Part shown: positions 1 to 10,961 of the stretch, in pieces
How positions within the stretch are numbered: the first letter of the stretch is position 1
Layout: each line of letters opens with the position of its first letter
Source: an uncultured Candidatus Bathyarchaeia archaeon
GTDB lineage: Archaea; Thermoproteota; Bathyarchaeia; Bathyarchaeales; Bathycorpusculaceae
DNA length: 11,453 nt
Reading direction: 5' to 3'
Assembly: GCA_964450845.1 (NCBI GenBank)
Contig: CAYVGZ010000048.1
Coordinates: 1 to 11,453 of the forward strand
Program-made: the position numbers and the translations under genes
Notes under the pieces: generated by a model
Told to the model about the DNA's origin: nothing
Database searches by the model: none
What the model saw: the letters and a program-made list of their open reading frames with translations, nothing else

Positions 1-85
1 TGGAGGAAACGAAGCCACAATCCCCTCGCTTAAGGCTAAATTTGGACTCTTCGGTTCTGAACCCGAATGGATCTGGGTCCAGTTA

Positions 86-160
86 TGGGGCTGCCCGGAT
101 TTGAACCGGGGTCACGAGCGCCCGAGGCTCATAGCCTAGACCAAGCTAGCCGACAGCCCC
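86..160 (-). tRNA. tRNA-Pro(CGG), intronless, CCA not encoded
   Basis: Reverse complement folds as GGGGCTG/CAGCCCC acceptor stem, D arm GGCT-AGCTTGGTCTA-GGCT, anticodon arm TGAGC-CT[CGG]GC-GCTCG, T arm CCCGG-TTCAAAT-CCGGG, discriminator A at 86. Confidence 0.95.
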
Positions 161-267
161 ACGGCGTTAACTCTCCATTCCAATATCATAGAAGATAAGT
201 GTTCCCTAACACCTTTAAACTCTTACTTCTAAAATAATATCTTCACAGAGGGGAGGCTAGAATAGGT
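161..267. promoter_or_regulatory. Divergent promoter region for tRNA-Pro (-) and the NrdD-like gene (+)
   Basis: AT-rich spacer with TTTAAA at 214-219, a CTTATC box on the minus strand near 194-199, inverted repeat GTGTT-ccct-AACAC at 199-212, and RBS-like GAGGGGAGG at 248-256 ahead of TTG 268. Confidence 0.45.
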
Positions 268-2457
268 TTGTCGGTTCCACATCGTATGCGCGGGGTCAGA
301 ATACTTAAGGCAGTTTCTTCACCCCTTAGGCTGCAGATTTTGAACTTACTTTTTGACAGAGGCTCTCTTTCTTACACGGAGTTGATGGGTTCGCTGAAGA
401 TGAATCCTAGCAGGGATGCTGGAAGATTTGCCTATCACTTAAAGTTTCTGCTTAAGACGGATCTGATCGAGGCAGATGTTGAAACAAAGAAATATTGCCT
501 TACCGAGTTGGGCAAGGTTGTCATTGATGTGGCAGAAAGAATTGAAAAAAACGCCTTTAAACCAAAAGGAATGCTTGTCCGCACTTCCCGATTTGCACCA
601 GAAGAATTTGACGCAAACAAGATTGCAAATTCCCTCATAAAAGAGACGAAAATGCCTGCAGAGTTAGCTCGAAAGGTGGCTAAAGAAGCAGAAAAATGGT
701 TGCTTAAATCAAAAACGAAATATTTGACAGCCCCCCTCGTCAGAGAAGTTGCAAATGCAATTTTAATCGAGCAAGGTTTAGAGGAATACCGCCATAAACT
801 TACGCGTTTGGGTCTTCCAGTCTACGACGTAACTGCTCTTATTGATACAAAAAGTAAAACTTCTGAAGGGTCAGCCTCCATACACGAAACCGCTGGAGAA
901 ACAGTTCTTAAAGAATACACTCTTTTGAACGTCTTTCCAAGAGACATTGCAGATGCACACTTGTCAGGTTCGTTGCACATTCATGGTTTAAGCTCTTGGA
1001 TTTTGAAGCCAAGCGAAATAATGCATGACTTAAGATTTTTCTTCCAAAACGGCTTAAACCTAGAGAAAATAAACGCTCTTCAGCCTTCCTATTCTCCACC
1101 CCAAAACTTAGAGTCCGCTTTATCCATAGCATTTAATGTTCTCTTACATTCTGTCAAAGAAGTAGATGAAACGCAAACAATTGACTACTTCAACGTTTTT
1201 CTTGCACCGTTTATAAAAGGCATGGATTCCTCAGAGATTAAAGAGGCTCTACGCTTATTCATTGCCAACATAAATCAACATGTAAACACTTCTTTAGGCT
1301 TAGAGCTTACAATCCCAGACTTCATAGCAGATAAGCCAGCTTTTGGACCTTTCGGAGAACATGCAGGCAAATACGCAGATTTCCTTGAAGAAAACCAAAT
1401 CTTAGCATCGCTTATTTTCGAGATATTTGCCGAAGAAAGCGCACGAAAACCAATGTTTAATCCAAAAATCATTTTAAAAATCCGCTCGGAAACATTTGCT
1501 GATGAGAAAGCAAAGGCAATGCTTCTGAAAGCACATCAGTTGGCATCAGAGAAAGGCATGCTGTACTTTGCTAATCTGTTAGAAAAAGACCAAAAGTATT
1601 CTGTTTTCTCAAGTTCTGGATTTAGACTTAAAGCAGATTTGAATGGAGACTGGGAAATCGATACGTTACGCACGGGCTGTTTAGGATATGTAACGATTAA
1701 CTTACCACGGATTGCATATGAATCTGGCAAGGACAAGACAAAGTTTTTTGAAATCTTAAGAGAAAGACTTGAGATGGCAACTCGTGCTTTAGAAATTAAG
1801 GACAGAATACTAAAACAGCACGGCAAAGGTTTACTGCCATTTCTAATGCAAAGCGTTAATGGCGACCACTACTTTAGACTTGAAAATTGTTCTCGTATAA
1901 TAAACTTGGCAGGTTTAAAAGAAGCTTCAGAGGCATTCAGCGAAAAAAAATTGGAGTTTGCTGACGAAACAATGCAAAACATTCTGGCTTACATTCAGAA
2001 AATCCGCAGAAAACGTAGAAAACGTCTATCCACAGCCACACTGCTAGACTTTGAAGCTTTAGAAAGACTAGTGCAGTTAGACATTGAAAGATATGGCATC
2101 GCCAAAGTTCGATTTTCGGGGACAAGGGAAAAACCATTTTACTCAACAATCAGCAAGCTAATTCTTCAAGATGGCAAAATTTCTCCAGAGTCTTCAATAT
2201 TTGAACGGAAGATGCGTGGACTACATGGTGGGAACCTAACGGTAATAGACCTCGGAGAAGCTGAACATAAAACAGATGAGCTTATGTCCTTAACTAAACA
2301 GGTTTTTGAAATTCATAACATGGAATTTCTAACATATAACCGCAAATCGACCTACTGTGTCAACTGCAGAAGAAGCTGGTTTGGATTATTACACAAATGT
2401 CCTTCATGCGGGTCAACAGGCACTTTGACGACCTTTGATCGATTTGCATTAACATAA
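268..2457 (+). CDS. ArsR-type winged-HTH / ATP-cone / anaerobic ribonucleoside-triphosphate reductase (NrdD)-like fusion; predicted catalytically inactive
   Basis: aa ~8-92 wHTH (SSPLRLQILNLL..LSYTELM..GRFAYHLKFL..KKYCLTELGK); aa ~102-175 ATP-cone (VRTS..EEFDANKI..LTAPLVRE..GLEEYR); NrdD landmarks HLSG-LHIH, HDLRFF, FNVFLAP, GDWEIDTLRTG, VTINLPRIAY, HGG..LGE and C-terminal CxxC-x10-CPSCG. The RxxGY glycyl motif and catalytic Cys residues are absent. TTG start with RBS; ATG 286 is an alternative start. Confidence 0.88.
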   Translation: MSVPHRMRGVRILKAVSSPLRLQILNLLFDRGSLSYTELMGSLKMNPSRDAGRFAYHLKFLLKTDLIEADVETKKYCLTELGKVVIDVAERIEKNAFKPKGMLVRTSRFAPEEFDANKIANSLIKETKMPAELARKVAKEAEKWLLKSKTKYLTAPLVREVANAILIEQGLEEYRHKLTRLGLPVYDVTALIDTKSKTSEGSASIHETAGETVLKEYTLLNVFPRDIADAHLSGSLHIHGLSSWILKPSEIMHDLRFFFQNGLNLEKINALQPSYSPPQNLESALSIAFNVLLHSVKEVDETQTIDYFNVFLAPFIKGMDSSEIKEALRLFIANINQHVNTSLGLELTIPDFIADKPAFGPFGEHAGKYADFLEENQILASLIFEIFAEESARKPMFNPKIILKIRSETFADEKAKAMLLKAHQLASEKGMLYFANLLEKDQKYSVFSSSGFRLKADLNGDWEIDTLRTGCLGYVTINLPRIAYESGKDKTKFFEILRERLEMATRALEIKDRILKQHGKGLLPFLMQSVNGDHYFRLENCSRIINLAGLKEASEAFSEKKLEFADETMQNILAYIQKIRRKRRKRLSTATLLDFEALERLVQLDIERYGIAKVRFSGTREKPFYSTISKLILQDGKISPESSIFERKMRGLHGGNLTVIDLGEAEHKTDELMSLTKQVFEIHNMEFLTYNRKSTYCVNCRRSWFGLLHKCPSCGSTGTLTTFDRFALT

Positions 2458-2479
2458 GCGTTAAAGAGGAAGTAAAATG

Positions 2480-3537
<1,058 letters not shown>

Positions 3538-4002
3538 ATGAGTGAAACTGAGTTGTATGTTTCCAAAATTAAGGATGGCACGGTTATTGATCATATTACT
3601 GGCGGACACGCGTTAGACATTGCCAAAATTTTGGGGATAACTGGGCGGGAGAAAAGAGTCATTACGATTGCAATCAATGTGCCTAGTAAACGCTTCAAGA
3701 TGAAGGATATAGTTAAGATTGAGGGGAGAGAGTTAAACCCACAAGAAGTGCATAAAATTGCCTTGCTTGCTCCCCATGCAACAATTAACATTATCCGCGA
3801 TTATAGGGTTACAGAAAAGCAGAGGGTTCAGCTTCCAAAAATCATTGAAAACATTGTCAAGTGTGCTAATCCCGCTTGCATAAGCAACAGCAATGAGCCA
3901 GTGCAAGCCAAATTTTATGTTGAAGGCGAGGAACCGCTACTGCTGAAGTGCCATTACTGCGGTCATATTATGGAGAAAAAAGATGTGCTTGAGCAGTTTT
4001 AG
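3538..4002 (+). CDS. pyrI: Aspartate carbamoyltransferase regulatory subunit
   Basis: VSKIKDGTVIDHI N-terminus, KDIVKIE, APHATINII, and four Zn ligands (KCANPACISN, KCHYCG). Confidence 0.97.
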   Translation: MSETELYVSKIKDGTVIDHITGGHALDIAKILGITGREKRVITIAINVPSKRFKMKDIVKIEGRELNPQEVHKIALLAPHATINIIRDYRVTEKQRVQLPKIIENIVKCANPACISNSNEPVQAKFYVEGEEPLLLKCHYCGHIMEKKDVLEQF

Positions 4003-4128: not shown

Positions 4129-4446
4129 ATGATGGAAATAATAATGGTAACATTATGGGTATGCCTCGCAACCTATATAACATGGTATTTTACATCAGCA
4201 AAAAATTATGCTCCAATAACCTCTAAGGAAGCAAGAATACTGTGGAAAATTCATAAACGTAACATCCTATGTGATGCCAGAAGATGGCGGGAGATAAAAC
4301 GTGGGGGCAAAATAATAGGTTTTGAATGTGAATGTGGATACAAACATGTACAAAAACGCCCAATAGTAGCCAACACGCCCTCACCTAACATTAACTCACA
4401 AACCTCCGTATTCGACAGACTGCACGCTCCTTATAGAGCAAAGTAA
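4129..4446 (+). CDS. Hypothetical small membrane-anchored protein with putative metal-binding His/Cys residues
   Basis: RBS GGTGA at 4120-4124 (start 4129 or 4132); hydrophobic N-terminal ~20 aa (IIMVTLWVCLATYITWYF); WKIHK-x4-C...FECECGYKH; fills the gap between pyrI and the convergent radical SAM gene. Confidence 0.8.
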   Translation: MMEIIMVTLWVCLATYITWYFTSAKNYAPITSKEARILWKIHKRNILCDARRWREIKRGGKIIGFECECGYKHVQKRPIVANTPSPNINSQTSVFDRLHAPYRAK

Positions 4447-4485: not shown

Positions 4486-5916
4486 CTAGGTAATGCTGCG
4501 CATATTTTCTCTGATGTCGCCTATTCGGCTTAGGTTGTTTAATACAATTTGCTTTCGATAGGAGCTTTTCACAGTTCTTGCTATTTGTTCTATTAAGAAG
4601 TTTGGTCGACGGATAAAATGATAAAAGGCTTCATGAATCATGTGCTTGATTTCGTTAAGCGGCACCGCAGTTGGACATATCTCGGAAACTGCGACGCCTG
4701 TTTCCCAATATTCCCCTCCTTTTAGAAGCCCCTTAGCCTCGAATTCATTCCAGATGTCGTTTCCAGGATAAACACCCAATATGTTAAATTGTGGGAAATC
4801 TATCGGAATTTGTTTTGCAAATTCGATTGTATTCTGAGTTTCTTCTCTGGTCTCGTCTGGAGCGCCTACAATAAAAGACCCAACCACAACGTCTATTCCA
4901 GCCTTTCTGGCTGTTTTTACGGCAGTTTTAGACTGTTGGGGTGTTGTCTGTTTATTGTAGTAGTTTAGGATTCTTTGGTTGGCGCTTTCGATGCCAAAGT
5001 AAAGGATTCTGCAGCCTGCTCTGGCAATTTCCCGCAGCATTTCATAGGAGCAATTGTCAACTCTTCCCTCGCAGATCCAGTCCATATCTATTTTTTCCTT
5101 TCTCATTTCTCTGCAAAGCTTGATTACTCTTTTTTGGTTCAGCGTAAAGCTGTCATCTATAAAAATGAACTGTTCATATCCCTCACTAGCGAGAAAATGT
5201 AACTCGTCCAGAGTGTTTTGAATAGATCTTGGTCTCCACATGCCACGAGCGAACTGTCGACAACTGCAAAATCGACATCTGTAAACGCATCCACGCGAAG
5301 AAACTATGCTTGTGAATTTTTTCGGCGCCACATTAGCTCCAGCAATAATGGAATGATATTCATCGTCAATTAGCTCACGGTCTGGAAAAGGAAGCGAATC
5401 CAAATCCCTTATTAGGGGTTGATCAGGAGTGGAAACCATATTTTCTCCGTTTTTGAAAGTAACTCCTCGAACTTTTTTGAGACTGCCTTTGTTTCTCAAG
5501 CAACTTACAAGTTCGATGACTGTGTTTTCTCCTTCTCCTCGAACAATGATATCAACGGAAGGGTATTTCCTCAGAATTCGTTCCGGGTTGAATGTTGCAT
5601 AATAGTTGCCAAACACCGTGATGACATTTGGGTTTTTTTCTTTCACCTTCTTACTGATTAATGCGGCTGTGCGACCAGAACTCGCGAAGGTTGAGAAACC
5701 AAGAATGTCAGGATTTTCTTTCTCTACCCAATTAACTGTTTCTTCAATTGTGAAACTTTTTGCTGGCTGATCTAGAACAGAAACTTCTATCCCTCTTTCC
5801 TGAAGCACCGCACCCAAATACAAAATGCCCAAAGGCGGCCACGAAGCAATACTTTTTCTTCTTTCACGTTCATCTAAGCCTTCATTGGGACTAGCATTGA
5901 TGACAGAGAATTTCAT
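4486..5916 (-). CDS. Cobalamin-binding-domain radical SAM protein (class B methyltransferase-like)
   Basis: PPLGILYLGAVL and DILGFS B12-binding-type N-terminus; SSRGCVYRCRFC (CxxxCxxC); FIDDSF; YFGIESANQRIL; SFIVGAPDET. Likely start is ATG 5916 (MKFSVINASP); the ORF track extends to 5961. Confidence 0.9.
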   Translation of the reverse strand: MKFSVINASPNEGLDERERRKSIASWPPLGILYLGAVLQERGIEVSVLDQPAKSFTIEETVNWVEKENPDILGFSTFASSGRTAALISKKVKEKNPNVITVFGNYYATFNPERILRKYPSVDIIVRGEGENTVIELVSCLRNKGSLKKVRGVTFKNGENMVSTPDQPLIRDLDSLPFPDRELIDDEYHSIIAGANVAPKKFTSIVSSRGCVYRCRFCSCRQFARGMWRPRSIQNTLDELHFLASEGYEQFIFIDDSFTLNQKRVIKLCREMRKEKIDMDWICEGRVDNCSYEMLREIARAGCRILYFGIESANQRILNYYNKQTTPQQSKTAVKTARKAGIDVVVGSFIVGAPDETREETQNTIEFAKQIPIDFPQFNILGVYPGNDIWNEFEAKGLLKGGEYWETGVAVSEICPTAVPLNEIKHMIHEAFYHFIRRPNFLIEQIARTVKSSYRKQIVLNNLSRIGDIRENMRSIT

Positions 5917-5956
5917 TTCTAACACTTCAACAACTTCACGTTTATTATTCTCATTA

Positions 5957-5969
5957 CACATAAACTTTT
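5957..5969 (-). promoter_or_regulatory. Candidate BRE/TATA for the radical SAM gene
   Basis: Minus strand AAAAGTTTATGTG about 40 nt upstream of ATG 5916. Confidence 0.4.
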
Positions 5970-6177: not shown

Positions 6178-7695
6178 TTATCTGTAGCTTTTTATTGGAA
6201 TTCCAGCTTTTTCCGCTTTATACTTGGCAATTCTTGCGAAAATTTTATAGAAAGATTGTAAGATGTTTGCATACCATTTTCCAGCAACGGATAAGTCAAT
6301 TAGTTTTTCTACCCAGTGGAAGTCATGTTCTGCACATTTAATCAGCAATTCCTTGTGCAACTCGCTCATTTGTGCTTCTTTAAACCACTGCTCGTCCTTT
6401 AATCTGCCCATAGGAACAAAAAACAAAGGCACAATTAGACTTCTAACATCTTTAAGGTCATCCATCAGCTCTATCGTCTTGATAACGTCATCTTCTGTTT
6501 CTTCTGGAGCCCCAACAATCAATGTGCCTGCAGGAACTAGCTTGTTATCGTGCATTAAACCCATGCCAGTGCGAACGACTTCTGGCCACTGTTCCGGCTT
6601 AAAGGGATGAGCTTTTGCAGGCATAACTTTCTTGGCAAGGTCTGGCGAACCTGTTTCTATTCCAATTTCGGCGCCCCACCAAGGCTGCTTTTGCAGTATG
6701 ATTTCAGATATTTTTGAAAAGAGTTTTGGTTTTGACGCTACGGCTGCTAGTGAGCAGTGACTCCAGCAGATGCTTTCACATTTCTTTGCAACTAATTCAT
6801 GAAGTTTGACGAGCTTTTCATCGTTCGGCAACGTATTTTTAGAGCCGTAGAGCATAATGTCTTCTGCGTGGAGACATGACCAATTTATGTTTCCAACCTT
6901 TAAGTTTACATCTATTTCCCGCAGTATTTTCTCATAGGGATACCAACGCAACGATCTCAAAGTCACGCTGCAAAATTTACATCCCCGACAACATCCGCGA
7001 CCAACTTCCACTAAGCCATTGACAGAGGGTCTCACAATATCGGGTATCTCCTCCACACTTGGAGCCTCTTTAACGTCAACCTCGTAGTATTGAGGAAGAG
7101 CTTCACCGTTAAGAGCAGCCCGAGCGATTTTCCCAATGACCTTCTCAGCCTCTCCTTCAACTATACAGTCTATCCCATATTCCTCAACAAACTTTGGCCT
7201 ATAACGAAACTGCCAAACACCTGGACCGCCAACAATAATCCTTAACCCACTTTTCTTCGCTTTTCTAATTTCCAGACTGTCCAGCAGAGCACGGAAATAT
7301 TGTGCAAGAAATGGCTCCTTTTTTAGAATGGAGGCTAAGGTGCTTGAGGCTGGGCCTAAGCCAAAGGGGTCCATTACATGTATGCCTAGAACCTTTACTT
7401 TGTTCACACACTTTCCAAGATGGTTTGGTGCAACAGTTGACACGTCGAAGCCTTCGCTCAAAAGTTGAGCCTCAATTTTTCTTAACCCATACGGTGCCGC
7501 CACAGGCATACCCTTCAAAGTTTTTATGGGCGGAAAGAAAAGCCATTTGTAAAGCCAGTCTGGAACAAAATTTGGGGGGGCACACGTTCCAAACCCTAAA
7601 AATTCATTGCGATGGTAATCACTCATCAAAGTTTGGTCAGCAGTTAGGAGTATTTTGTCACCTGCTGATTCTTGTAGCAAATCATCGGCTTCCAT
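6178..7695 (-). CDS. Archaeal radical SAM protein with B12-binding-like N-terminal domain, function unknown
   Basis: EVGRGCCRGCKFC (CxxxCxxC), IIVGGPG, APYGLRKIEAQL, GIETGSP, GTLIVGAPEETEDD; N-terminal LLTADQTLMSDY. Confidence 0.88.
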   Translation of the reverse strand: MEADDLLQESAGDKILLTADQTLMSDYHRNEFLGFGTCAPPNFVPDWLYKWLFFPPIKTLKGMPVAAPYGLRKIEAQLLSEGFDVSTVAPNHLGKCVNKVKVLGIHVMDPFGLGPASSTLASILKKEPFLAQYFRALLDSLEIRKAKKSGLRIIVGGPGVWQFRYRPKFVEEYGIDCIVEGEAEKVIGKIARAALNGEALPQYYEVDVKEAPSVEEIPDIVRPSVNGLVEVGRGCCRGCKFCSVTLRSLRWYPYEKILREIDVNLKVGNINWSCLHAEDIMLYGSKNTLPNDEKLVKLHELVAKKCESICWSHCSLAAVASKPKLFSKISEIILQKQPWWGAEIGIETGSPDLAKKVMPAKAHPFKPEQWPEVVRTGMGLMHDNKLVPAGTLIVGAPEETEDDVIKTIELMDDLKDVRSLIVPLFFVPMGRLKDEQWFKEAQMSELHKELLIKCAEHDFHWVEKLIDLSVAGKWYANILQSFYKIFARIAKYKAEKAGIPIKSYR

Positions 7696-7863: not shown

Positions 7864-8439
7864 ATGGAGAGCAACAAATTGAAAAAAATCTTGGAAGTCA
7901 GATGGCATGGCAGAGGCGGCCAAGGAGCATGGACAGCAAGCGAATTGTTAGCTAGAGCAGCCATTTACGAGGGAAAATACATTCAATCTTTTCCAGAGTT
8001 TGGCCCAGAAAGAATGGGAGCACCAATAACCGCCTTTACAAGAATAAGCACCGAGCCTATTCAAATACACTGCTCAGTTTATAATCCCGATGTTGTAGCT
8101 GTTTTAGACCCAACATTACTAAAATCAGTTCCATTTACTGATGGGTTAGATGAGAAAGGAACAATTCTGATTAATTCAAAGGACAACCCAGCAGAAATCA
8201 GGAAAATATTCAACACAGGCAAAGGTAAAGTATGGATTGTTCCAGCAACAGAAATTGCCATAAAAATTTTAGGAATGCCCATAACAAACACAGCCATGCT
8301 GGGAGCTGTTGCACGGGCAACTGGAATAGTCAGCTTGGAAAGCGTAGAAAAAGTGGTTGGAGAACGTTTTAGGCGGGACATTGCGGAGAAAAACTTTGCA
8401 GTAATAAAAGAGGCTTATGAGGAGGTAAAATCCGAATGA
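7864..8439 (+). CDS. porC: Pyruvate/2-ketoisovalerate:ferredoxin oxidoreductase gamma subunit
   Basis: EVRWHGRGGQGAWTA, FPEFGPERMGAP, NTAMLGA. TTG 7879 (MKKILEVRW, GGAG 9 nt upstream) is an alternative start. POR versus VOR specificity is not resolvable by eye. Confidence 0.92.
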   Translation: MESNKLKKILEVRWHGRGGQGAWTASELLARAAIYEGKYIQSFPEFGPERMGAPITAFTRISTEPIQIHCSVYNPDVVAVLDPTLLKSVPFTDGLDEKGTILINSKDNPAEIRKIFNTGKGKVWIVPATEIAIKILGMPITNTAMLGAVARATGIVSLESVEKVVGERFRRDIAEKNFAVIKEAYEEVKSE

Positions 8440-8714
8440 CGTCTAAAGAAAAAAGTTGGAAAGAAATTGCACCAGCAGGCGTATGCTGGAAGCCTAGCAC
8501 CGAATTTTTGACTGGAGATTGGAAAACATACAAACCAGTGAGAGATTTGGAGAAATGCACGCGATGTTTGTTGTGTGTGCTTTTTTGTCCAGATGGAGCA
8601 ATACATTGGAACAGTGAAAAGGGAGACATAGAATTTGATTTTAACTTCTGCAAAGGCTGCGGAATATGCGCCAACGAATGCCCAACCAAAGCGATTGAAA
8701 TGAAACTTGAATAG
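8436..8714 (+). CDS. porD: 2-oxoacid:ferredoxin oxidoreductase delta subunit (2x[4Fe-4S] ferredoxin-like)
   Basis: TGDWKTYKP, CTRCLLCVLFCP and CKGCGICANECP; ATGA overlap with the gamma stop; RBS GGAGGT near 8420-8425. Confidence 0.93.
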   Translation: MTSKEKSWKEIAPAGVCWKPSTEFLTGDWKTYKPVRDLEKCTRCLLCVLFCPDGAIHWNSEKGDIEFDFNFCKGCGICANECPTKAIEMKLE

Positions 8715-8727
8715 GAGCGAATAATAA

Positions 8728-9960
8728 ATGAAAAGTGTTGTTAAACAAGAGGTTTTAGCCCTAAACGGAGACGAGGCAGTTGCCCTCGCTGCAAAACAAG
8801 CAGACGTGGATGTGGTGGCAGCCTACCCAGTGACTCCGCAGACAATAATTGTGGAAAAATTCAGCGAATATGTGGCCAACGGCGAAGTTGACACAGAATT
8901 TGTATGCACAGAATCTGAACACAGTGCTATGACCGCTTGCCTAACTGCTTCAGCTATGGGCGCAAGAACATTCACTGCTACGTCAGCTCCAGGCTTAGCC
9001 CTAATGCATGAGATGCTTTTTGTAACTTCTGGATGTCGCGCCCCAGTGATAATGGCAGTCGCCAACAGGGCTCTGTCAGCACCGCTGAACATTCACTGCG
9101 ATCATTCTGACACCATGGCTCAGCGAGACAGTGGGTGGATTCAATTATATGCTGAGAATGCGCAGGAAGCTTACGATTCAATAATTCAGGCTTTCAGAAT
9201 TGCTGAAGATCAAGATGTTTTATTGCCTGTCATGGTTGGTTTGGATGGGTTTACGCTGACGCATACGTTGGAGAATGTTGAGGTGCTTTCGGATGAGGTT
9301 GTTAGGAAGTTTGTTGGAAGTCGTCAAATCCCAAAAGTTGTGACTCATGAAGGAAAAATTGTGCCTTTCAAGCTTGACCCGGCTAATCCGATGTCAATGG
9401 GACCTATTGCTTTGCCGAATTATTATTTTGAATTTAAACGGCAACAAGAAGAAGCTATGGGAAATGCTTTGGAGAAAATTTCGAAAGTGAATGAGGAATT
9501 CGAGGAAATAAGCGGTAGGCGATGTGGGGATGGATTGCTTGAACTTTATCATATTGGAGATGCTGAAATAGCGATTGTATGTTTAGGCTCAACCACTGGA
9601 ACTGTTAAGGCTACCGTGGATGAGCTTAGAGAAGAAGGCGTCAAAGCAGGAGTTCTCAAGGTTCGCACTTTTAGACCTTTACCAGTTGAAGGAATTGTTG
9701 AGGCGCTTAGAAAAATGAAGGCGGTGGCGGTTATGGATAGAAGTATGAGTTTTGGAGGAAACGGTGGACCAGTGTTTCACGAAGTTCGTCATGTGCTTTA
9801 CGATTTGCCTACGCATCCTTACGTAGTAAACTACGTTTATGGTTTGGGAGGAAGAGACACGAGTCAAAGCCAAATTTGCAGAATCTACGAGGACTTGCAG
9901 GAGATGCTGCAAACAAAGCGTGTTGAGAGTCCGATAAATTATGTTGGGTTGAGAGGGTAA
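8728..9960 (+). CDS. porA: Pyruvate/2-ketoisovalerate:ferredoxin oxidoreductase alpha subunit
   Basis: AAYPVTPQT, ESEHSAM, TATSAPGLALMHE, NRALSAPLNIHCDHSD, YGLGGRD; RBS AGGAG at 8713-8717. Confidence 0.93.
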   Translation: MKSVVKQEVLALNGDEAVALAAKQADVDVVAAYPVTPQTIIVEKFSEYVANGEVDTEFVCTESEHSAMTACLTASAMGARTFTATSAPGLALMHEMLFVTSGCRAPVIMAVANRALSAPLNIHCDHSDTMAQRDSGWIQLYAENAQEAYDSIIQAFRIAEDQDVLLPVMVGLDGFTLTHTLENVEVLSDEVVRKFVGSRQIPKVVTHEGKIVPFKLDPANPMSMGPIALPNYYFEFKRQQEEAMGNALEKISKVNEEFEEISGRRCGDGLLELYHIGDAEIAIVCLGSTTGTVKATVDELREEGVKAGVLKVRTFRPLPVEGIVEALRKMKAVAVMDRSMSFGGNGGPVFHEVRHVLYDLPTHPYVVNYVYGLGGRDTSQSQICRIYEDLQEMLQTKRVESPINYVGLRG

Positions 9961-9971
9961 AAGGAGGAAAA

Positions 9972-10961
9972 ATGGGGATGTTTTCTGAATGGAAATTTAC
10001 CGCAAAAGACATCGCTGAAAAACCAGACTTGTTCATGTCGGGGCACAGAGCATGCGCAGGGTGTGCACCAGCAACAGTTTTGAGGCTTATTATGAAAGCT
10101 ACTAGAGGACCAACGATAGTGACGAATGCGACTGGATGCATGGAAGTGGTGTCGTCAATTTATCCGTACACTTCTTGGGCTACGCCGTGGATTCACACGG
10201 CTTTTGAAAATGCTGCTGCAAATGCGTCGGGAATCGAGGCGGCTATAAAAATATTGAAGAAGAAGGGAAAGATGAAGCAGGAGCAGATAGACGTTATTGC
10301 GCTTGCTGGAGATGGGGGCACGTATGATATAGGCATACAAGCGCTTTCTGGAGCAGTGGAAAGGGGACATGATTTTCTGTTTGTGCTTTATGATAATGAG
10401 GCTTACATGAACACGGGCATTCAACGCAGCGGTGGAACGCCGTTAGGTGCGTCTACAACTACTTCGCCTGCTGGCACAGTCGTTCCTGGGAAGTTGGAGA
10501 ACAAGAAGCCTATTGCTGATATTATGGTGGCGCATGAAATGCCCTATGTGGCTACAGCATCGCCCTATTACTGGCGAGACCTGCTTGTAAAAGTTAGAAG
10601 GGGAATTGAAGTTAATGGTCCAGCGTTTTTGCATGTGTTTGCGCCGTGTCCGAGGGGGTGGAGAAGTGATCCAGCCAAGTCTATTGAGCTTTCGCGTTTG
10701 GCTGTGGAGACGTGTGTGTTCCCGCTTTGGGAAGCCGTAAATGGCGAATATCGGCTTTCAGCACCAAGCAAAGTCGTAGCTTTAGCGCCGCAAAAGAAGA
10801 AGCCATTGAAGGAGTATTTGCAGGTGCAGGGACGATTTAGGCATTTGTTCACGCCGAAATACGAGAAAATGCTAGGCGAAATACAGCGGATGACAGATGA
10901 GAGATGGGATAAGCTGCTTAAGAAATGTGGAGTGACGCAGCCAGCGAAAGCAACAGTTTAG
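9972..10961 (+). CDS. porB: Pyruvate/2-ketoisovalerate:ferredoxin oxidoreductase beta subunit (TPP-binding)
   Basis: GHRACAGC, TGCMEV, GDGGTYDIG...YDNEAYMNTGIQRS TPP motif, PCPRGW; RBS AGGAGG at 9962-9967. Confidence 0.93.
   Translation: MGMFSEWKFTAKDIAEKPDLFMSGHRACAGCAPATVLRLIMKATRGPTIVTNATGCMEVVSSIYPYTSWATPWIHTAFENAAANASGIEAAIKILKKKGKMKQEQIDVIALAGDGGTYDIGIQALSGAVERGHDFLFVLYDNEAYMNTGIQRSGGTPLGASTTTSPAGTVVPGKLENKKPIADIMVAHEMPYVATASPYYWRDLLVKVRRGIEVNGPAFLHVFAPCPRGWRSDPAKSIELSRLAVETCVFPLWEAVNGEYRLSAPSKVVALAPQKKKPLKEYLQVQGRFRHLFTPKYEKMLGEIQRMTDERWDKLLKKCGVTQPAKATV

Follow-up and report, generated by a model that had tools for sequence, protein, structure and literature searches.

The window analysed here is an 11,453-nucleotide stretch of DNA from a Candidatus Bathyarchaeia archaeon (assembly GCA_964450845.1, contig CAYVGZ010000048.1, forward strand). 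Near its beginning there is a gene whose product joins an ArsR/SmtB-type winged helix-turn-helix, a divergent ATP-cone and the body of a class III ribonucleotide reductase (RNR; NrdD) from which the catalytic residues have gone. We suggest, with a probability of about 0.6, that this fused protein forms homo-oligomers and acts as a transcription factor, controlled by its ATP-cone, in nucleotide or deoxyribonucleoside triphosphate (dNTP) metabolism. The reading builds on what was observed of its architecture, missing catalytic residues, conservation, distribution and genomic neighbours; that it binds DNA, senses nucleotides and oligomerises, and which genes it controls, are predictions. The gene and its parts are:

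268-2457, plus strand: whole gene, encoding the winged helix, the ATP-cone and a class III RNR body judged dead from its residues (open reading frame, translation, Pfam, structure model)
162-267, no strand assigned: promoter region in common with a divergent tRNA-Pro gene (sequence, orthologous promoters)
277-555, plus strand: ArsR/SmtB-type winged helix-turn-helix, residues 4-96, in the order α1-α2-α3-α4-β1-β2-α5 (Pfam, profile, Foldseek, conservation)
571-801, plus strand: divergent ATP-cone, residues ~102-178, a β-hairpin plus helices (Pfam, conservation)
874-2430, plus strand: class III RNR (NrdD) barrel, residues 203-721, without catalytic residues (Pfam, BLASTP, Foldseek, residue audit)
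1609-1629, plus strand: remnant of the Cys-radical (finger) loop, residues 448-454, SSSGFRL (BLASTP against the genome's own NrdD, MAFFT)
2356-2409, plus strand: zinc ribbon CxxC-N10-CxxC with C697, C700, C711 and C714 (conserved in 96-97% of the family)
2431-2457, plus strand: remnant of a cut-short glycyl-radical domain, TFDRFALT-stop (alignments)

The gene is a single unbroken open reading frame of 729 residues (protein P0001) with a TTG start and a TAA stop. There is a Shine-Dalgarno-like run, GAGGGGAGG, at 248-256 and the TTG follows 11 nt later; the start position is the same in orthologues, where the codon is ATG, GTG or TTG. An earlier reading of this DNA, which we call the original prediction, had described one uninterrupted frame joining a winged helix (the first ~95 residues), an ATP-cone and an NrdD body with a zinc ribbon, and Pfam, profile and structure model all agree with it. 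Pfam places HTH_5 at residues 18-68 (E 5e-5, above cut-off) and DUF7347 at residues 13-87 (E 2.5e-6). A profile of residues 1-200 matches solved ArsR/SmtB proteins, HlyU best (E 4.7e-5) and then CadC, ArsR and NolR, and a separate model of the N-terminal part superposes on HlyU, CzrA, SmtB and CadC with template modelling (TM) scores of 0.70-0.79 and root-mean-square deviations of 2-3 Å. The recognition helix carries the motif DAGkFAYHLK, in which G52, F54, Y56 and H57 are invariant in the family. The winged-helix fold and the recognition-helix signature expected of ArsR/SmtB regulators are therefore both present. For the full protein, an AlphaFold model built with 51 family members as input reaches a predicted local distance difference test (pLDDT) score of 88.6, and its best Foldseek matches are all class III RNRs (9d3x, 8p2s, 4coj and 1hk8; E 1e-26 to 1e-17).

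The strong Pfam NRDD match at residues 203-721 (E 3e-66) could be taken to mean that the protein is a working RNR, possibly with unusual chemistry, and sources do name its relatives as reductases. We find this scarcely credible. The protein scores 240 bits against a 326-bit cut-off with the NCBIfam NrdD equivalog model (TIGR02487), and it is only 25% identical by BLASTP to the genome's own NrdD (P0002, on contig C15). Both radical sites are missing. The finger loop reads SSSGFRL, with no Cys, where active NrdDs have SMCCRL (the genome's own) or MGCR, and the C-terminus reads CPSCG...TFDRFALT-stop in place of the CPTCG...YSRVVGYLRP of the genome's own NrdD, with no Gly-Tyr. Additionally, substrate and specificity elements are missing, the protein occurs in aerobes where no activase was found, and there are two other RNRs in the genome.

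We extended this comparison to 80 fused members from across the phylum, set against 17 NrdDs with both radical motifs, and audited the columns conserved in ≥88% of the 17. The second active-site Cys (aligned with Cys174 of the genome's own NrdD) is retained in 0% of the 80 members and the thiyl Cys column in 4%. The radical Gly and Tyr are kept in 17% and 4%; an RxxGY motif occurs in 2/80, and no member has it together with a finger-loop Cys, although a minority, among them the closest relative (70% identical, SGCKL), do have a Cys near the finger loop. Of the two Asn in the NxN flap, one is retained in 0% and the other in 5%; the Arg and Gln of loop 2 are each down to 1%, mostly through deletion. 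The two conserved Gln that precede loop 2 are kept in 4-5%, and the P-A-E of EATPAE, whose Glu bridges to the substrate, in 28%, 4% and 33%. For the flap, loop 2 and the Glu we adopt the roles described from structures of P. copri NrdD (PMC11226230), and single mapped positions are approximate because the mapping passes through two alignments. What is kept is structural: NLPR (80-100%), AxAHxxGxxH, GxxE, RxxxxD and the GG loop, and, by fold match and four conserved Cys, the ten-stranded α/β barrel with its C-terminal zinc ribbon.

By these residues, the RNR body is catalytically dead and its radical chemistry lost. As the radical sites were looked for and are absent, the protein falls outside active NrdD. 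The dead body supports the idea of a regulator because that idea needs it, a point that the original prediction had not stated. Since the NxN flap, the specificity-site elements and the Glu are lost family-wide, only the cone still looks like a functional nucleotide site. The proposal that the dNTP specificity site had possibly been reused as a sensor finds no support in the same evidence, the loop 2 Arg and Gln and the two preceding Gln having gone throughout the family, and the barrel is more likely to be a scaffold than a dNTP sensor.

The host genome (metagenome-assembled, 1.64 Mb, 93% complete) holds separate intact RNRs, a point that the original prediction had listed as a check. On contig C15, nrdR, nrdD and nrdG are consecutive and intact; this NrdD scores 656 bits to PF13597 and has a normal cone. 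The nrdG of the genome adjoins this canonical nrdD and not the fused gene. Contig C53 encodes a 699-residue RNR with a class I/II barrel plus a cone. With an intact nrdR-nrdD-nrdG set and a second RNR in the genome, the fused protein is not the cell's reductase. In two relatives the homologues of the C53 RNR (L181, L182; G002, G006) are ~1065-1080 residues long and match it in two blocks split at about residue 375, which suggests an intein or other insertion.

The genome also encodes a true NrdR (PF22811 + PF03477, 155 residues). Here and in 20 relatives there is a palindrome, ACNCTA-N4-TAGNGT, directly after the TATA box of the nrdR promoter (L001:4047-4200, minus strand; L134-L153), with a second box, AACACTA, ~20 nt downstream of it. 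We take this pair to resemble the bacterial NrdR box pair, here in an archaeal promoter. The only perfect match to the palindrome in the genome is at that promoter; the genome search found none at the fused gene or at the C53 RNR. A genuine NrdR with candidate boxes thus coexists with the fused protein, which would therefore add to NrdR and not replace it.

The fusion is widespread. Of 40 genomes of the same order, 39 carry the fused frame at full length (44-92% identity), and a single in-frame stop was met in one genome; the single-assembly chimera for which the original prediction had provided a check therefore does not apply. Hundreds of protein-database clusters show the same Pfam string. 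There are 368 representatives at E ≤ 1e-30, and two signature peptides are matched by >595 species genomes. Of 301 genomes sampled from the whole phylum, 205 have the N-terminal module (first 200 residues). Carriers, by their source names, include Nitrosopumilaceae (Ca. Nitrosotenuis cloacae), Methanosuratincola and Culexarchaeia. In a maximum-likelihood tree, 42 fused rows are split from 17 active rows by one branch with a Shimodaira-Hasegawa-like approximate likelihood-ratio (SH-aLRT) support of 100; this is consistent with a single origin of the fused family, the root of the tree not being known. As read from the sequences, the fusion is old and under selection.

In five complete genomes of Nitrosopumilaceae, which are aerobic ammonia oxidisers, the fused homologue was the sole NRDD match with the queries used, and the same queries found no NrdG2-type activase above 52 bits (cut-off 131). 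This suggests that the family is independent of class III chemistry, as in the ammonia oxidisers. Database entries for relatives are often named 'anaerobic ribonucleoside-triphosphate reductase'. Literature searches, with subscription journals outside their scope, found no paper on the architecture, on DUF7347 or on the ammonia-oxidiser homologues, and the family is large and apparently unstudied.

Conservation in the family peaks twice, at the recognition helix and at the cone plus linker. The cone and linker carry the motif LVRTSR..EEFD..YLTAPLIRE..EEYRHxLTRLGLPVYDV, and R105, F114, I119, E126, R159, R175 and R180 are invariant across this region. In the structure model the cone is a hairpin plus helices with pLDDT 75-87. 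The Pfam ATP-cone match (residues 104-174, E 1.6e-5) scores 25.8 bits, exactly the gathering score, and the canonical K-R-D-G is replaced by R-T-S-R. These two features, together with a second nucleotide site of the P. copri type that is not recognisable, would fit a DNA-binding regulator whose cone and barrel are purely structural, with no ligand or with a non-adenine one. We regard this as unlikely: no other segment is as conserved as the cone, which has invariant Arg and Glu residues, and in one subgroup of relatives the same odd motif, VRTSR...LIRE...TRLGLPxYDV, occurs in the active NrdDs that neighbour the fused gene, where the cone is an allosteric site. As active NrdDs have it too, the motif more probably marks a working cone subtype than decay, which argues that the divergent cone of the fused protein is a working variant.

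The fused gene is followed by two genes of pyrimidine synthesis:

2480-3451, minus strand: pyrB, aspartate carbamoyltransferase (ATCase) catalytic chain (Pfam; context, a putative target)
3538-4002, plus strand: pyrI, ATCase regulatory chain, divergent from pyrB (Pfam; context)

The fused gene and pyrB lie tail-to-tail with a 22-bp gap (window 2458-2479) and, being convergent, have no shared promoter. The arrangement is nearly constant: pyrB is the first downstream gene, tail-to-tail with a gap of 7-110 bp, in 52 of the 53 Bathyarchaeia species loci (among L028-L107) with enough downstream sequence. The adjacency recurs in other classes of the phylum. In order-level relatives the order is fused gene, NrdH-like redoxin (where called), active NrdD, pyrB on the opposite strand and pyrI; the family of this genome lacks the redoxin and the active NrdD, so that here the fused gene abuts pyrB. 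The neighbouring NrdDs of those relatives have NSQCCRL and SRITGY, and one subgroup has the cone VRTSR...LIRE...TRLGLPLYDV. This points to an origin of the fused gene by duplication of the neighbouring NrdD type.

We surveyed the context in 32 loci from about 30 families. An active NrdD lies directly downstream of the fused gene in seven, preceded by an NrdH-like redoxin in the three where one was called, and an RNR with a class I/II barrel is nearby in four (directly downstream in three), one of them in an ammonia oxidiser. In 13-14 loci pyrB or pyrI is ≤3 genes away, including in Culexarchaeia at 30% identity, and in eight there is a housekeeping cluster (NAC, PUA, PAN, HflX, TFE) downstream. 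Since related genomes are not independent of one another, the counts make the support look stronger than it is.

Frequent proximity to active RNR genes, and to pyrB nearly always in Bathyarchaeia, would also be seen if the protein were a pseudo-enzyme acting through contacts with an active RNR or ATCase partner, its winged helix binding protein or being vestigial; the retained NrdD barrel with several of its structural motifs, and operator searches that found none, fit this as well. It is an unlikely explanation in our judgement, because the recognition helix, with its ArsR-like xxYHLKxL and invariant H57, is among the most conserved parts of the protein, and because the partners vary by lineage (class III, class I/II-type or none adjacent) and the ammonia oxidisers are without NrdD, which makes a single conserved protein partner unlikely.

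Further genes of the window can be described briefly. There is a 105-residue frame with no Pfam match at 4129-4446 (plus strand), between pyrI and a radical-SAM gene. Two adjacent genes encode large radical-SAM proteins (4486-5961 and 6178-7695, both minus strand), one with a B12-binding domain. They are followed by an operon for a four-subunit 2-oxoacid:ferredoxin oxidoreductase (7864-10961, plus strand). No link between these genes and the fused gene was seen.

On its other side the fused gene is divergent from a tRNA-Pro(CGG) gene (window 85-161, minus strand), a pairing that is kept in one subgroup of relatives, and the 106-bp spacer must hold two promoters. Within the promoter region there is a TATA-like TTTAAA at 214-219 and a palindrome, GTGTTCCCTAACAC, at 199-212, and a stretch, CTTTAAACTCTTRC, is conserved among family-level orthologues. 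The palindrome was rejected as an operator, since it has 36 near-matches per strand genome-wide against 72 for a control pattern, none of them at nrd or pyr promoters. The fused-gene and nrdR promoters have a decamer in common, TAAACTCT(T)AC, which was likewise set aside: the copy at nrdR is half of the NrdR-box-like palindrome found in 20 relatives, so the decamer is no evidence for the fused protein. At the C53 RNR gene the TATA lies between two AGCTAA boxes, a pair that is kept only within the genus and not in other relatives. A bidirectional core promoter accounts for the conserved TTAAA-TCTTTTAT...TATAGCC in the pyrB-pyrI spacer, which has no motif in common with the fused-gene promoter. 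Orthologous fused-gene promoters do have conserved flanks to the TATA box, TTAGTTAAG-TTTAAACTCT...AATAATAGGTAG, which are not general promoter features; a recurrence of these flanks at other genes could not be demonstrated.

Two patterns were seen in relatives. There is a direct repeat, TAYACAG-N7-TAYACAG (12-nt period), in the spacer from the fused gene to nrdH/nrdD in order-level relatives (L020, L022, L024, L025, L026 and L116), just upstream of the A/T-rich promoter of the active RNR operon; it was noticed by eye only. In 20 ammonia-oxidiser loci, A/T-flanked GATC boxes occur at 22.5 per kb upstream of the homologue and at 15.3 per kb in the RNR spacer, against 5.6 per kb elsewhere in those loci, though the genomes are close kin and some of the upstream set lies within an acidic N-terminal extension. 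No such enrichment is seen for other palindromic tetramers. The arrays reach eight boxes in 150 nt (Nitrosopumilaceae loci L108 and L185-L203) and are a weak lead to a candidate operator of the ammonia-oxidiser branch.

That the operator searches found none would also agree with a general chromatin or replication-linked DNA-binding protein that would tether or mark DNA without gene-specific regulation. Weak NCBIfam similarity to Sso10a-type chromatin proteins points the same way, and so does the near-universal presence of the fused gene, as a single copy in all 41 order-level genomes searched. Such a role is nonetheless very unlikely, as a 729-residue protein with a nucleotide-binding domain is unlike the known archaeal chromatin proteins and its recurrent association with RNR and pyr genes indicates a specific pathway.

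Taken together, the data suggest that an NrdD paralogue unable to make or use a radical has, with an ArsR-type winged helix, become a sequence-specific DNA-binding regulator. The NrdD-like barrel and zinc ribbon would be the oligomerisation scaffold that pairs two winged helices. Binding of ATP or dATP to the cone would change the oligomeric state or domain arrangement and in turn DNA binding, a logic modelled on NrdR and on cone-regulated RNRs. We place the regulon in nucleotide or dNTP metabolism because in relatives the fused gene immediately precedes active RNR genes (nrdH-nrdD or an RNR with a class I/II barrel). Candidate targets in this genome are the gene's own promoter, the C53 RNR and the adjacent pyrB/pyrI.

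Several observations weigh against a cone-controlled transcription factor. Promoter motif searches in this genome and in relatives defined no operator for the fused protein. There is no RNR gene next to it in the window, and pyrB, its only conserved neighbour here, is convergent. NrdR is already encoded in the same genome. The cone is divergent and scores only at the Pfam threshold, and no solved ATP-cone was matched by sequence, either with the cone alone or with the N-terminal profile. One of the two basic hairpin residues is left (R105, against K-R in canonical cones). Finally, the last cone helix, which in P. copri NrdD carries the second nucleotide site (Tyr83, Arg87 and Arg91; PMC11226230), is shortened, and a site of that type cannot be recognised. 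Because of the threshold score, the single hairpin Arg and the short last helix, the identity of the cone ligand is only tentative.

The fused protein can be compared with three known systems. It is like NrdD (PF13597, TIGR02487; 1hk8, 4coj, 8p23, 9d3x) in the fold of residues ~200-720, the N-terminal cone, the zinc ribbon and the structural motifs. In contrast with NrdD, it is without the thiyl Cys, the second Cys, the NxN flap, loop 2 and the Gly-Tyr, its radical domain is shortened and it has an extra winged helix. With the ArsR/SmtB repressors (PF01022; HlyU, CzrA, CadC, SmtB) the N-terminal ~95 residues have the fold and the recognition-helix signature in common. The metal- or thiol-sensing sites of that family are absent. 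The cone and barrel would be the sensor, and dimerisation would probably come from the barrel and not from helices α1 and α5.

Like NrdR (PF22811 + PF03477), the protein combines a cone with a putative element for DNA binding and with a zinc ribbon, and linkage to RNR genes is a further common point. The logic proposed for both is that a nucleotide-loaded cone controls oligomerisation and DNA binding. The protein probably works like NrdR. It is predicted, however, to bind DNA by an ArsR-type winged helix and not by a ribbon, it has a dead RNR barrel between cone and ribbon, and it is ~5 times the size. The NrdR layout (an N-terminal ribbon followed by a cone, in ~150 residues) is absent, and with this different architecture the protein falls outside NrdR.

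The original prediction had proposed that an RNR was recruited as a regulator and that an NrdR-like function was thereby reached by a different route. The first proposal gains from the dead body and from the position upstream of RNR genes in relatives, while DNA binding, nucleotide binding and targets are still only inferred. The second fits the proposed logic, but given the coexisting NrdR it would describe an addition and not a replacement. New in the present analysis are the residue audit across the phylum, an NrdR in the same genome with candidate boxes of its own, the near-universal linkage to pyrB and the disappearance of the specificity-site elements.

We also consider, as a doubtful but broader possibility, that the protein is a regulator of DNA-precursor supply throughout the Thermoproteota (Bathyarchaeia, ammonia-oxidising Nitrososphaeria, Methanomethylicia and Culexarchaeia), coordinating whichever class of RNR genes the host has with pyrBI. 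The dead RNR barrel would then be an ATP/dATP-driven oligomerisation switch for the winged helix, and coordination of RNR with pyrimidine synthesis would explain why the adjacency to pyrB is kept across classes.

The reductase names in the databases falsely imply anaerobic dNTP synthesis in reconstructions of aerobes and of uncultured archaea. RNR regulation is unknown in most archaea, and with a conserved, near-universal candidate in this phylum, which cultured ammonia oxidisers also carry, the question can be put to a direct test. If our reading is true, this family would clearly exemplify how an essential radical enzyme can become the ligand-sensing scaffold of a transcription factor.

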